This document shows, in pieces, positions 170-56,118 of a stretch of DNA of 60,066 nt (its first letter is position 1; each line of letters starts with the position of its first letter). The notes beneath the pieces were generated by a model, which was not told the origin of the DNA, searched no databases, and worked only from the letters and a program-made list of their open reading frames with translations. A program made the translations under genes and the position numbers. This stretch comes from an uncultured Nitrospirota bacterium (lineage in GTDB: Bacteria; Nitrospirota; Nitrospiria; JACRHA01): assembly GCA_964481895.1 (NCBI GenBank), contig CAYZUL010000006.1, positions 1 to 60,066 of the forward strand, written 5' to 3'.

Positions 170-625
170 AAGCCACGACAGGCACGATTGTACGTCCCCG
201 GAGCCCTACACCATATCATGGTAAGGGGAATCAACAAAGAAACGATCTTCGCGAACAACGAGGACAAAGTCCGCTTCCTCAGGTCGCCTCGGCCAAAACG
301 TTACCGAAGGGAACTGCACTGTCTATGCCTGGGTCATCATGGACAACCATATTCACCTGCTTTTTAAAAGCGGCAAGCAGGGAATCTCCTCGGTTATGCG
401 CAAGCTCCTTACATGATATGCTCAATACCATAACCGTATCCACCGACGTACGGGTCATTTGTTCGAAAACCGCTCTAAATCCATCCTCTGCGACGAAGAC
501 ACCTATCTGCTTGCCCTTGTCCGATACTTCCACTTAAACCCGCTTAGAGCCAATGCAGTTCAGACCATCTGAGAATTAGACCGGTACGCTTGGTGTGGCC
601 ACCAGACAATCATTGGAAAGGCCAA
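170..625 (+). pseudogene. REP-associated tyrosine transposase (RAYT, Y1_Tnp), N-terminal remnant
   Basis: Reads (K)PRQARLYVPGALHHIMVRGINKETIF, frameshift near 280-285, then YAWVIMDNHIHLL (HUH)...RRTGHLFENR...LVRYFHLNPLRA...YAWCGH; start codon is AAG, in-frame TGA at 414-416 and 570-572. Confidence 0.85.
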
Positions 626-28426: not shown

Positions 28427-28965
28427 ACAGGGATGGCACAATCAATAAAGAGTCAGGTTATATAGACAGGCCTGATATGATAGAACTTATACCAGGGTCG
28501 GCTGAGGCCATAAGGATGATAAATTGCATGGGGCTTAATGCGGTGGTTGTTACAAATCAGTCCGGCATAGGGAGGTCCTATTTCAAGGAGGAGTCTTTAA
28601 AGGAGGTTCATAGAAGACTAAAAGAGATCCTTATGGAAGAGGGGGCATATATTGATGCCATTTACTATTGTCCCCACCACCCTGATGAAGGCTGTGATTG
28701 CAGGAAGCCGATGCCTGGTCTCCTGAAAAAGGCCGCGTCAGAGCTTGATATCGATCTTTGCTCATCATATGTTATAGGTGATAAGATAAGCGATCTTATC
28801 CTTGCCCTAAATGTAGGGGCAATGGGGATACTGGTCAGGACAGGTTATGGATCAGAGACTATTGAAGCTGTCAGAGATCAAGAGGGTCTTTCAGGCCTGG
28901 TTGCAGAAGACCTCTTAAGCGCAGTCAGATGGATAAAAGAAGACATAAAAAAATACTCATCATAA
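28402..28965 (+). CDS. gmhB: D-glycero-D-manno-heptose 1,7-bisphosphate phosphatase
   Basis: FIDRDGTIN, TNQSG, CPHHP..C.CRKP, IGD..SD. Confidence 0.93.
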   Translation: MGRIAVFIDRDGTINKESGYIDRPDMIELIPGSAEAIRMINCMGLNAVVVTNQSGIGRSYFKEESLKEVHRRLKEILMEEGAYIDAIYYCPHHPDEGCDCRKPMPGLLKKAASELDIDLCSSYVIGDKISDLILALNVGAMGILVRTGYGSETIEAVRDQEGLSGLVAEDLLSAVRWIKEDIKKYSS

Positions 28966-30137
28966 AACCGAGTTCCCTCGGGGATATTGTTCATTCACTT
29001 CCTACTCTAAAGGCGGTCAGGCAGCTCTTTCCGAAGGCATTTATATCATGGCTTGTGAAGGAGGAGTGGGCGGGGATCCTGGCAGGGAATCCATATCTGG
29101 ACGAGATCCTCTCTTTCCCCTTTACCCTGAAAGGGATGCCGCAGATAATCGGATCAGTCAGGAAGAGGAGGTTTGACCTGGTCCTGGATCTCCAGGGACT
29201 TCTGCGCAGCTCGGTGATCAGTTTTCTATCCGGTGCATCGATAAGGATCGGCTATGAGAGTGCCAGGGAGGGTGCCAAGATATTTTATACCGAGAGGGTA
29301 AAGGTCCCTTTGTTAGATATTCATGCTGTTGACCGCTATATGCTTTCTGTTGGGATAGAAGGGTTTGTCCCATCCCCATCTGATTTCTACATAAAGATTG
29401 ATCAGGCTGATACCGGCTATGTAAGGGAGATGCTGGCCATAAATAATTCTGTAAATTCGCCTCTTATAGCGATAAACCCGCAGGCAAGATGGAAGACAAA
29501 GCTTTGGCAACAGGAGCGCTTTGATCTGCTTGCAGACCTGCTGGCTGATAAGTTTGGCGCAAGGATCGTTTTAATTGGCGACAATAAAGACAATTTAGGC
29601 GGAGATGAAGCGACGCGAGCCCCTTTGGGGTATCTACATAGCGAACAACGTGAGCGAGAGGGGGATGGTCGCTCCCCTGAGATAGAACAGCGAGCGAAGT
29701 CGAGCGTAGGGAGGGGGAGGCTCCATCCGGCTCTGCCGGTGGAGGGGGATGGTCGCTCCCCTGAGATTGAAGCGACGCGAGCCCCTTTAATAGACATGAG
29801 GGGAAAAACCAGCCTAAAACAGTTGGCCGCACTGTTGAAGGAGGTCGACCTGCTTGTCACCAACGATTCAGGACCAATGCATATAGCGGCAGCACTGGGA
29901 ACCCCTGTTGTTGCCATCTTCGGACCAACAGATCCGAAGAGGACAGGGCCCTATGGAGAAAGACACAGGGTCGTCCGGGGCTCTGCTCCGTGCAGTCCCT
30001 GTTTTAAGAAGAGATGCGGCATGCCGAGCCATCTCTGCATGGAGGCGATTAGCGTTGAGATGGTGTTGGAGGAGATATCAAACATACTGAGAAGTAATAA
30101 TGCTGGATCAGTCGGCGCAGAGAGGACCGAAAAATAG
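28929..30137 (+). CDS. waaC: GT9 heptosyltransferase (WaaC-like) carrying an in-frame repeat-element insertion
   Basis: KPSSLGDIVH, DLQGLLRS, NDSGPMHIAAA, FGPTDP; about 60 aa of non-family sequence at 29606-29788. Confidence 0.85.
   Translation: MDKRRHKKILIIKPSSLGDIVHSLPTLKAVRQLFPKAFISWLVKEEWAGILAGNPYLDEILSFPFTLKGMPQIIGSVRKRRFDLVLDLQGLLRSSVISFLSGASIRIGYESAREGAKIFYTERVKVPLLDIHAVDRYMLSVGIEGFVPSPSDFYIKIDQADTGYVREMLAINNSVNSPLIAINPQARWKTKLWQQERFDLLADLLADKFGARIVLIGDNKDNLGGDEATRAPLGYLHSEQREREGDGRSPEIEQRAKSSVGRGRLHPALPVEGDGRSPEIEATRAPLIDMRGKTSLKQLAALLKEVDLLVTNDSGPMHIAAALGTPVVAIFGPTDPKRTGPYGERHRVVRGSAPCSPCFKKRCGMPSHLCMEAISVEMVLEEISNILRSNNAGSVGAERTEK
29606..29788. repeat. composite palindromic element within the waaC-like CDS
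   Basis: 21-bp direct repeat 29606-29626/29768-29788; 26-bp direct repeat 29658-29683/29742-29767; hairpin CTCCATCCGG-CTCTG-CCGGTGGAG; GGGTATCTAC 29628-29637. Confidence 0.9.
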
Positions 30138-30159
30138 AAACACAAAAGGGAGGTTTATT

Positions 30160-30348
30160 ATGGGTATAAGCAAAGAACTTCTGGATATACTTGCCTGTCC
30201 AAAGTGTAAGGGGGATATACATCTTAACGAGAAGGGCGATGGACTGGTCTGCGATGCATGCAGGCTTATCTATCAGATCAAAGACGATATACCCATTATG
30301 CTGATTGATGAGGCCATTAAGCTTGGGCCTGCGGATGCCCAGAATTGA
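30160..30348 (+). CDS. Trm112/YcaR-family protein
   Basis: LLDILACPKCKG...LVCDAC.L.Y.I.DDIPIML.DEA. Confidence 0.93.
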   Translation: MGISKELLDILACPKCKGDIHLNEKGDGLVCDACRLIYQIKDDIPIMLIDEAIKLGPADAQN

Positions 30349-37821: not shown

Positions 37822-39156
37822 ATGAAGTTACCTCTCATTGCAATAATAGGCAGACCCAATGTCGGAAAGTCGACCTTTTTTAACAAGCTTCTGGGAAAAA
37901 GACTTGCTATTGTGGAGGACCAGCCCGGTGTGACGAGGGACAGGAACTATGCAAGATGTAGTTATACTGACAAGGAGATTAATCTGGTTGACACAGGGGG
38001 TTTAATCATGGAAGGCGATGAAGGGATTACGGCCAAGGTAAGGAGGCAGACAGAAGAGGCAATGGCTGAGGCTGACCAGATAATCTTTCTCCTGGACGGG
38101 AAGGAGGGCGTCACGGAGGGGGACAAGGAGATCGTCGAGATCTTAAGGAAGGTCAAGAAACCCATTTATTATGCTGTAAACAAGATTGACGGGCCAAAGG
38201 CAAGGGACAAGGTATATGAATTCTATCAACTGGGTATAGATCCTATATACCCTGTATCAGCGGAGCATGGATACGGTATTGATGATCTTATGGAAGAGGT
38301 CTGCTCCCTTTTGCCAAAATCTGTATATACAGAAGAGGCCGGAGAGATATTGCCTAAGATCACCGTGATCGGGAGGCCGAATGTCGGTAAATCGACGCTT
38401 ATCAACACCCTTCTGGGGGAGGAGCGTATGGTGACAAGTGAGGTGCCGGGGACAACAACGGACCCGATAGATACGACAGTTGTGCATAGCGGGAAAAACT
38501 ACCTCTTCATAGATACAGCTGGTATACGCCGCAGGGGCAAGATTGAGCGCGGGGCTGAAAGGTTCTCTGTTTCAAGGGCAACAAGGACGCTTACAAGGGC
38601 GGACATTGCCCTCCTTTTGATCGATGCCACGGAGGGGATAGTGGAACAGGATACAAAGATAGCAGGGATGGTCTTAAAGGAGAGGGGGCTTATTCTTCTA
38701 ATTAATAAATGGGATCTGGTTTTATCTGACCCTCTGGCAAAAAAGAAGTTTGAATCGGAGATCAGCAGGAGGTTCCCCTTTCTCTCTAATACGCCCCATC
38801 TGTTCATCTCCGCCAAAAAGCATAAGGATCTGGAAAAGATCTTTCCATTAATAGATCAGGTGATGGAGGGATTTACCCTGAAGGCCTCCACCTCATCCTT
38901 AAACAAGATGCTTGAGGAGATCCTCTCCACAAACCCGCCTCCTTCTTACAAGGGGCTTAGGGTTAGGGTAAAGTATATCACCCAGATCGGTTCGTCACCA
39001 CCTGCATTTCTAATATTCTCAAACCGTCCTGAAGGGATAAAAAGGGGATATATCAGATTCCTTGAGAGTAAGATCATAGAGAGATTCCAGATCGTCGGGT
39101 CGCCAGTCAATGTCAAGATGAGGGGCAAGGATGGCAACGCAAACCCCTATAAATAG
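37822..39156 (+). CDS. der: ribosome biogenesis GTPase Der
   Basis: Two GRPNVGKS G-domains, DTGG/DTAG, NKID/NKWD, KH-like tail. Confidence 0.96.
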   Translation: MKLPLIAIIGRPNVGKSTFFNKLLGKRLAIVEDQPGVTRDRNYARCSYTDKEINLVDTGGLIMEGDEGITAKVRRQTEEAMAEADQIIFLLDGKEGVTEGDKEIVEILRKVKKPIYYAVNKIDGPKARDKVYEFYQLGIDPIYPVSAEHGYGIDDLMEEVCSLLPKSVYTEEAGEILPKITVIGRPNVGKSTLINTLLGEERMVTSEVPGTTTDPIDTTVVHSGKNYLFIDTAGIRRRGKIERGAERFSVSRATRTLTRADIALLLIDATEGIVEQDTKIAGMVLKERGLILLINKWDLVLSDPLAKKKFESEISRRFPFLSNTPHLFISAKKHKDLEKIFPLIDQVMEGFTLKASTSSLNKMLEEILSTNPPPSYKGLRVRVKYITQIGSSPPAFLIFSNRPEGIKRGYIRFLESKIIERFQIVGSPVNVKMRGKDGNANPYK

Positions 39157-39183
39157 GAGGTTAGTGCTTCCCCTTGCTCACTA

Positions 39184-39212
39184 GGTAGACCCGCTTCCCG
39201 TGGGTATCTACC
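39184..39212. repeat. GTAG-type REP-like hairpin
   Basis: GGTAGA-CCCGC-TTCCC-GTGGG-TA-TCTACC; 39197-39211 is the exact reverse complement of 55992-56006. Confidence 0.7.
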
Positions 39213-55434: not shown

Positions 55435-55995
55435 TTGATATCAACAAACGAGATCAGGAACGGGGCTAAGATAGAAGTCGATGGAGAGCCATTTAGTATA
55501 GTAGAGTTTCAGCATGTAAAACCGGGCAAAGGCGGTGCATTTGTTAGGACAAAGTTGAAGAGCCTGAAGACAGGCAATGTCGTTGACAGGACATTCAGGT
55601 CAGGCGATAAGCTGGAAGAGCCTGCAATCGAAGAGATGGAGATGCAGTATCTTTACTCTTCCGAAGGTCAGTATTTCTTTATGGATACAAAAAGCTATGA
55701 ACAGGTCTTTATCCTGCAGGAGCATCTTGGTGAGAGTAAAAACTTTTTAAAAGAGAATATGGTGGCCAAGATCATCTTTTATGAGGGCAAACCACTGAGC
55801 GTTGAACTCCCGATCTTTGTGGAGTTAAAGATCGTAAAAACCGACCCCGGAATCAGGGGGGATACGGCTACCGGTGGATCAAAGGTGGCAATGGTGGAGA
55901 CCGGTGCAAATGTGAAGGTCCCGCTATACCTTGAGGAGGGCGCGGTAATCAAGGTGGACACGAGGAGCGGAGAATACGTGGAAAGGGTAAAGTAG
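55435..55995 (+). CDS. efp: elongation factor P
   Basis: HVKPGKGGAFVR, RGDT, DTR.G.Y..R; TTG start. Confidence 0.97.
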   Translation: MISTNEIRNGAKIEVDGEPFSIVEFQHVKPGKGGAFVRTKLKSLKTGNVVDRTFRSGDKLEEPAIEEMEMQYLYSSEGQYFFMDTKSYEQVFILQEHLGESKNFLKENMVAKIIFYEGKPLSVELPIFVELKIVKTDPGIRGDTATGGSKVAMVETGANVKVPLYLEEGAVIKVDTRSGEYVERVK

Positions 55996-56097
55996 ATACC
56001 CACGGGCAGAGCCTGTGGGTCAACCCAGCGAGCAAAGCGAGCGTTGAGGGGGAGGCTCCATCCGGCTTTACCGGTGGAGGGGGCGACGCAAGCCCCT
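55992..56097 (+). repeat. composite REP-like element between efp and accB
   Basis: GTAGAT-ACCCACGGGC-AGA-GCCTGTGGGT hairpin, then 56026-56097 nearly identical to modules of the waaC insertion. Confidence 0.88.
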
Positions 56098-56118
56098 ATA
56101 AATAGCAAAGGACCTGCA

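Follow-up and report, generated by a model that had tools for sequence, protein, structure and literature searches.

Evidence for in-frame insertion of a dispersed modular hairpin repeat in a lipopolysaccharide heptosyltransferase gene of a Nitrospirota bacterium

RESULTS

Our study describes a HepI/WaaC-like heptosyltransferase gene of an uncultured Nitrospirota bacterium whose reading frame holds 61 extra codons derived from a hairpin repeat that is modular and dispersed in the genome. The best explanation, and one that we consider probable, is an in-frame insertion of this repeat that would be translated as a disordered loop and probably tolerated by the enzyme. The repeat itself is dispersed through the genome, turns over between related genomes, lies almost always on the sense strand, conserves its main hairpin, and is retained in frame inside genes. 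The gene is located in the window, i.e., the whole stretch of 60,066 nucleotides that was analyzed, which belongs to genome G000; G001 and G002 are two other genomes in its genus.

Structure and authenticity of the insert

A preliminary description of the window had reported a palindromic element in an open reading frame (ORF) that stays open across a foreign peptide. We confirmed the open frame over 402 amino acids (aa), and its repeat-derived part, residues 227 to 287, is a mosaic of modules from the dispersed repeat (Table 1). The exact 21-bp repeats 162 bp apart were recovered as direct repeats (29606-29626 and 29768-29788) and the exact 26-bp repeats 84 bp apart as part of a 30-nt pair, 97% alike, at 29658 and 29742; exact direct repeats that long within 200 bases are far beyond chance. 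The word palindromic, in contrast, was wrong for the insert as a whole. An inverted-repeat search of the insert found none, and it folded no better than 200 shuffles (z of -0.12 as DNA and +0.52 as RNA), so the A-B-x-B-A layout is an order of direct repeats. The several hairpins that had been claimed exist in part: modules H and B form standard hairpins, whereas the A copies have lost their 5' arm and are unfolded on the + strand.

Directly after the insert come two host codons, Ile-Asp, which belong to the strand that leads into GKTSL, and both this motif and IVLIG are intact beside it, as previously noted. The earlier count of about 60 foreign residues in place of the usual linker was right for the number of residues (61 repeat-derived and 9 host-like, in a linker of 70 aa), but the net gain over the 19-aa linker of alleles lacking the insert (empty alleles, as opposed to filled alleles) is just 51 codons. 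All five filled versions end their insert with ..AP[LVI]-ID. At the position of A1, P0002, P0003, and P0005 read V-D-x-H/D, probably the translated start of module P, and in the window allele A1 appears to replace this original 5' start of the element. A target-site duplication was ruled out for the 21-bp repeat, which belongs to the element as its tail and does not occur in the empty allele; the repeat would be secondary, since three alleles seem to begin with the translated start of module P at that place.

Table 1. Features of the window and sites of a second repeat in G000
Feature	Position	Strand	Basis
GT9 LPS heptosyltransferase, HepI/WaaC-like, 402 aa, host gene of the insert	28929..30137	+	profile and fold matches
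Host-like linker remnant after the IVLIG strand, residues 218-226	29580..29606	+	alignment with empty alleles
A1, second copy of the tail module, 5' hairpin arm lost	29606..29626	+	exact repeat of A2
3' arm of module P (GTAG...CTAC double-foot hairpin)	29627..29637	+	sequence
Module L copy 1, GCGA-type hairpin, probably tandem G.A pairs	29640..29656	+	sequence
Module B copy 1, G5/C4 hairpin variant then TAG	29658..29685	+	local hairpin energy, -3.7 kcal/mol
Module L copy 2	29688..29706	+	sequence
G-rich spacer and module H, main hairpin (29722-29743)	29711..29743	+	local hairpin energy, -7.7 kcal/mol; compensatory changes
Module B copy 2	29742..29767	+	direct repeat
A2 tail and terminal TAG, merging with host Ile-Asp codons 29790-29795	29768..29793	+	sequence, alleles
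Partial third copy: degenerate tail module, then P-like hairpin	39133..39210	+	sequence match
Complete intergenic copy, P-L-H-E	55993..56104	+	sequence match, hairpins
Heptamer repeat sites, G000 (also L164, L167, L172)	C4:11937-11974, C24:8594-8627, C24:17848-17904, C28:21692-21727

An assembly artefact due to collapsed repeats, which would have undone the preliminary description, is extremely improbable. No contig listed for sequencing runs X1 and X8 spans the complete insert, as the core collapses as a repeat (module H, the most repeated part of the family, has a summed contig depth of ~2800 compared to 20 in the flanks). However, contigs of run X1, which may be the source sample of the assembly, cover 28900-29710 and 29738-30200 with no differences and cross each junction, and run X8, from another study, crosses both junctions. 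Moreover, the independent genome G001 shares the 183-nt insert except for two synonymous changes, and four further filled alleles exist. In practice, the artefact reading is refuted.

The host gene and the position of the insert in the enzyme

The host protein belongs to GT9 by its PF01075 domain, the only one recorded for it, its GT-B fold, and its catalytic Asp. The predicted fold matches 3tov, 1psw, and WaaC (2h1h/2gt1), and the gene shares a lipid A/LPS core operon with gmhB and three further GT9 genes. Among the four GT9 genes of the window, it scores highest as HepI (154 bits on TIGR02193, its best NCBIfam match, versus 77.5, 84.5, and 114.3). This score stays under the cut-off of 185, the match being split by the insert, and the HepII model TIGR02195 gives 146.8 bits, above its cut-off, so that these cut-offs appear to leave HepI versus HepII specificity undecided. 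Close orthologues carry the source labels Nitrospiria or Nitrospirota, and the labelled sequencing runs are for the most part groundwater metagenomes.

Identity to E. coli HepI/WaaC (PDB 2GT1, 2H1H) is only ~21%, but the GT-B fold is shared, and D19, K191, D313, and H318, invariant in 13/13 aligned sequences, align to HepI Asp13, Lys192, Asp261, and His266. The empty allele aligns to HepI right across the insertion site. According to the relevant part of a preprint (bioRxiv 10.1101/2021.06.16.448588), HepI Glu222 and Met242 contact the donor ribose and adenine; by manual count on the alignment of the empty allele with HepI, the insert lies between their equivalents, making this segment from helix C2 to the next strand 51 residues longer in the window allele than in the empty allele. 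The acid at the Glu222 position is ambiguous in the window allele (K220 or D221) and missing in P0002 to P0004. In an AlphaFold model of the 402-aa protein, computed with 13 sequences in the alignment (mean pLDDT of 75.7), pLDDT falls below 50 only at residues 221 to 281 and in the C-tail (391 to 402). If translated, the insert is thus likely to be a disordered, floppy extra loop in the model, low pLDDT from a 13-sequence alignment not being equivalent to proof of disorder.

An allelic series of one enzyme

The comparison with orthologues lacking the insert, as first suggested, was provided by G002, whose empty allele of 352 aa has a net difference of 153 nt. Beside the insert common to G000 and G001, a protein search returned four more filled versions and one more empty allele. 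The filled alleles thereby comprise five different in-frame versions of 382 to 410 aa, an "all in frame" result that is biased because protein searches return intact alleles only. From the IVLIG glycine to Ile-Asp, they measure 70, 73, 63, 50, and 83 aa, versus 19 and 19 aa in the empty alleles. Metagenome and genome scans for further alleles gave only distant homologues among the matches listed.

Residues 169 to 217 are 88 to 94% alike among filled alleles, compared to 53 to 63% with empty alleles, which argues for one origin followed by remodelling. Over codons 169 to 217 (29433-29600 of the window compared with L007), dS between filled and empty alleles is about 2, with the rest of the gene 83 to 97% identical; the sequences suggest that the insert travels on a recombined haplotype. 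Downstream of the insert, G001 is almost identical to G002. Within the insert, G000 and G001 differ at 2/61 codons, compared to ~12 expected at the flank rate (P of 0.0007), the two changes occupying equivalent positions in A1 and A2. The simplest reading of this low divergence would be a recent exchange or conversion.

An insert between ADP-contacting segments, with helix C2 (assigned by alignment to HepI) shortened in the window allele, might impair the enzyme, the gene surviving through reduced activity or through one of the three GT9 paralogues in the same operon. The higher dN/dS of residues 169 to 226 (0.43, on 58 codons only) would fit such damage. Against it, the five filled alleles are 86 to 99% identical outside the linker, with no stops or frameshifts, and the paralogues score lower as HepI. 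For G000 and G001, the 324 flanking codons give a dN/dS of 0.13, and flank values overall range from 0.08 to 0.13; part of this signal may predate the insertion, since the gene is a recombination mosaic. Impairment of the enzyme is improbable. Most likely, the peptide is a passenger, possibly with some effect on ADP-heptose binding.

Removal of the insert from the transcript or the polypeptide, in the manner of an intron or an intein, would also leave a normal mature enzyme. Short direct repeats at some ends and the strict sense orientation described below are compatible with an RNA-level process. Nevertheless, the search of the window for structured RNA families (Rfam 15, gathering score) returned one tRNA only, PF01075 stands alone in the protein, and the insert of 61 aa is variable in its ends and module order. 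The frames are also kept open, which would be unnecessary if the RNA were spliced. A search for reverse transcriptases in five high-copy genomes found none in four of them, and the only one detected, in G000 (C83:913-1554, L420), has one internal TAA. We thus regard removal as highly improbable.

Copies, modules, and turnover of the repeat family

Counting the modules in G000 by BLAST, as had been advised, gave ~114 intergenic and intragenic copies: iterated BLAST yielded 123 loci, reduced to 116 by dropping four heptamer arrays and three fragments and to 114 by a coverage filter. The same modules had already been noticed in an intergenic region of the window at 56026-56097; this match holds (88.5% over 61 nt), and the copy actually spans ~55993-56104, its first TAG being the stop codon of the upstream ORF (55435-55995). 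The usual module order is P-L-H-E, where B is a variant of E, and tandem arrays are frequent. Full copies of module P carry 5' GTAG in 13/16 cases and 3' CTAC in 12/16, whereas the core modules carry GGAG or TGAG at their foot. Among 31 copies, hairpin H shows compensatory changes at 5/8 pairs and a covariation score above all 500 shuffles and all slid controls, a test that leans favourable because the copies are not independent of each other and their own consensus supplied the structure. The middle two positions of module L mostly hold non-standard pairs (G.A by alignment), which are replaced by G-C in the DabA copies. Module hits occur on both strands at 1/116 loci, and module P is self-inverted. 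A second repeat, made of tandem GGAGTCA-type heptamers, lies in frame in several genes, where its translation is ESGVRSQ; it frequently adjoins the hairpin element, fused to the latter on its 5' side.

The comparison of G002 with G000 covered 1.56 of about 3.4 Mb of G002. Of the 71 G002 copies, 32 correspond to empty sites in G000, 16 occur in both genomes, and 23 are unmapped; conversely, 7 of the 114 G000 copies are empty in G002, with 19 shared and 88 unmapped. Eighteen clean filled/empty pairs (of 39) have TAG at both junctions in 7 cases, best exact repeats of 3 to 6 nt, and insertion lengths modulo 3 of 8/7/3. Terminal inverted repeats were found neither in these 18 pairs nor in the window insert. 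Searches of viral contigs (by one exact gapped pattern), plasmids, phages, five assorted genomes, and two genomes of another phylum gave no match to the repeat.

Strand polarity

Where the flanking genes are co-oriented, the element has the sense orientation at 45/48 sites in G000 and 46/47 in the part of G002 that was compared (together 91/95, or 96%, some of these sites being common to both genomes), and the intragenic copies are sense in 10/10 cases. In such spacers, TAGA occurs 454 times sense and 263 times antisense (63% sense), too weak a target-motif bias to cause the polarity, and two antisense frames of the window insert are also open; hence, neither frame nor target bias explains it. 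The sense strand is G-rich (4353 G versus 2942 C). Copies start at the upstream stop codon in 19/40 cases and often finish within 60 nt of a start codon.

Such placement could reflect a host-useful mRNA element acting on stability, anti-termination, or ribosome loading between cistrons, the in-frame copies being by-products or, in the boldest form, the loop itself having a role. This proposal would accommodate the sense bias at both sets of co-oriented sites, the proximity to stop and start codons, and the insert conserved between G000 and G001. Yet the majority of orthologous sites are unshared between sister genomes, the peptide frame varies between proteins, and the peptide drifts in DabA, while the conserved insert is explicable by recent recombination or conversion. 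We consider an mRNA function quite unlikely.

In-frame copies in other genes and other genomes

In G000, 6/114 copies are in frame, in the heptosyltransferase gene, a GGDEF-EAL protein gene, bioD, rlmN, cheW, and a DnaJ-domain protein gene. Among relatives, bioD has an in-frame copy whose module set differs, and cheW has two in tandem; cheA, uvrC, and a Uma2-family gene are further hosts, the last being longer by 144 nt in G002 and empty in G000. At the uvrC site, two genomes of one family (L184 and L356) bear different insert versions at the same position. Copies upstream of sdhB-like, lon, and rpoS-like genes have open frames but precede the likely start and were not counted as in frame. Among the 75 mapped of 116 relative sites, which include one empty, informative coding site, no frame-breaking intragenic copy was found; an apparent case (101 nt) was an antisense ORF across a gene junction.

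The tail pattern occurs in 54/401 genomes of the class, and the repeat family spans many Nitrospiria families. In the largest of these, 9/228 genomes are positive, with a single copy in frame in dabA in 5 of the 6 genomes whose copy was read; a sixth dabA case, in the L375-L379 set, came from the same search. DabA (DUF2309) is a probable inorganic carbon transporter subunit. In a subset of Nitrospira-like genomes, the element is fixed in frame within a variable loop of this protein and is the only copy detected (L115, L116, L375-L377, and L379; P0274-P0393). Of 120 DabA homologues, 88 were parsed and 14 of these have the peptide motif, with decayed forms beside them; there, the hairpin DNA is still recognizable while the peptide decays. 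A profile of 20 insert peptides had 178 matches among 1.84 billion representatives, most of them probably spurious short ORFs. Among the longer matches, 22 of 30 scanned were assigned to a Pfam family, and the peptide falls within RimM, Mut7-C, and NAGPA domains.

The element core was also detected in 8/301 genomes of a second phylum, in a set centred on a genome labelled Deltaproteobacteria, with an in-frame ackA copy having the same junction and, unlike the strict polarity above, a few antisense copies. In L433 (3868-5361, - strand), carA has a long C-terminal extension with three tandem element copies. In the second phylum, some copies (L426, L431, L434, L435, and L441) are tandemly duplicated together with adjacent host DNA, with periods of about 93 to 209 bp, which may be an element-triggered or an assembly effect.

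Candidate mobilizers

Of 31 Y1 loci inspected in eight draft genomes, two have a single copy in their vicinity, and none has copies on both sides. Judged by their translations, the neighbours of 19 loci at high-copy and array sites resembled housekeeping genes, five of them confirmed. In G000, the 4 Y1, 2 GIY-YIG, 5 DUF559, and 1 IS110 hits all lie at least 2 kb from a copy or on copy-free contigs. The DUF559 genes have on either side hairpin repeats of another kind, the CCCTCTCCC/CCCCTCC type, which bear no relation to the element (G000 C111:2351-2674, C14:2222-2539, and C64:13140-13421), and a Y1 transposase-like remnant with an internal TGA stands at the start of the window (264-527, + strand).

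DISCUSSION

We propose a history in which an ancestor of the filled alleles would have received a single insertion at TAGA, past helix C2 in the donor-binding domain. Modules would then have been gained, lost, or copied to give the five versions and, in the window allele, a second tail copy may have replaced the 5' start, producing the A-B-x-B-A look. Frame-breaking versions were likely removed by selection. As for mobility, we infer that the element is non-autonomous and REP/BIME-like and that an enzyme acting in trans, which would recognize single-stranded hairpins, copies it. The HUH/Y1 type is the most likely identity of this enzyme, although at less than an even chance; no gene of that type is linked to the repeat. 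TnpA-REP cleaves and recombines single-stranded BIMEs and was proposed as the builder of tandem copies, in the portion of PMC3333891 bearing on this point, and such tandem building fits the arrays and the GTAG module of our element.

A tolerated passenger might as well have spread by gene conversion, by recombination at TAG(A) microhomology, or by slippage, with no dedicated enzyme and with its orientation set by later selection. This possibility is rather doubtful but has several points in its favor, including the lack of any linked Y1, GIY-YIG, DUF559, or IS110 gene in G000, the ragged ends, the tandem duplications that include host flanks, and the occupation of the same bioD site by different module sets. 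This selection could act through Rho, as rho is present and the strand opposite to the G-rich sense strand is C-rich and could load Rho. On the other hand, hairpin H is kept across families by compensatory changes, which argues that something recognizes the structure, new sites arise in unrelated sequence at a high rate, and all ten intragenic copies are sense despite the two open antisense frames.

The proposal of the preliminary description, a family like the Rickettsia palindromic elements (RPEs) that adds peptide to a core enzyme in another phylum, is supported by the copy number, the six in-frame copies, and the empty allele. The part concerning an in-frame repeat outside Rickettsia stands, but the element is a modular tandem mosaic of small hairpins instead of one long palindrome. 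As RPEs (Ogata et al. 2000) are described in the sections concerned of PMC10969869 and PMC3733652, the likeness lies in a dispersed repeat of ~100 to 150 bp, both intergenic and in frame in unrelated housekeeping genes, with a recognizable peptide; by the same descriptions, nearly half of RPEs are intragenic, compared to ~5% here (6/114). In addition, the present host is a free-living Nitrospirota. Intragenic REP clusters encoding 43 to 82 aa in frame are reported for Thauera and R. conorii in the corresponding part of Di Nocera et al. 2013 (PMC3733652).

Double-foot REPs are assigned to TnpA-Y1 subclass 2.4 in the matching section of Quentin et al. 2018 (PMC6006769), and module P, a GTAG...CTAC double-foot hairpin, resembles the GTAG REPs as depicted there. 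Further likenesses to GTAG REP/BIME, within those accounts, are the TAG that is often the upstream stop codon and the modules in variable tandem arrays. In contrast to what they describe, no flanked RAYT gene was found in the draft genomes searched, and the L-H-E core is not a GTAG REP. Moreover, the units are nearly all head-to-tail on one strand (both strands at one locus) rather than in inverted pairs, and they have a strong sense-strand polarity. With MITEs (ERIC/RU, NEMIS, and RUP), the element shares being a short non-coding mobile repeat near genes, with sometimes an in-frame fusion and a short direct repeat at some sites, but it has no terminal inverted repeats, appears to have no constant target duplication, and is variable in module content. 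Since a single palindrome, a flanked RAYT gene, inverted pairs, and terminal inverted repeats were not found, we did not file the element as RPE, REP/BIME, or MITE. No description of this repeat family in Nitrospirota was found in the literature, with subscription journals and supplements (including Additional file 3 of PMC3733652) outside the scope of the search, and a motif search of the literature gave matches via one peptide string only, all on unrelated subjects.

Altogether, the element works like RPEs and intragenic REP clusters, and the general phenomenon is already known; new here are the series of alleles of a single enzyme, an insertion site next to its donor pocket, and the strand polarity. 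A bolder view, which we hold to be unlikely, is that of a previously undescribed cross-phylum, strand-polar class of mobile elements distinct from REP/RAYT and MITEs, inserted almost exclusively on the sense strand by an enzyme and remodelling the loops of essential enzymes. Similarly conjectural, and no more probable, is its mechanistic side, in which single-stranded recognition would proceed via a G.A-paired hairpin and two G-C hairpins, with transcribed DNA as the target. If this view were true, new protein loops would continually be generated and fixed, e.g., in DabA of Nitrospira.

Our findings add free-living Nitrospirota and a second phylum to the intracellular Rickettsia as hosts of protein loops derived from repeats. 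The empty and five filled versions constitute a rare allelic series, in which the cost of a 30- to 65-residue insertion beside a nucleotide-sugar pocket is directly measurable. Finally, the sense polarity at nearly all co-oriented sites, together with the missing mobilizer, points to a mechanism of insertion or selection beyond the REP/RAYT model.
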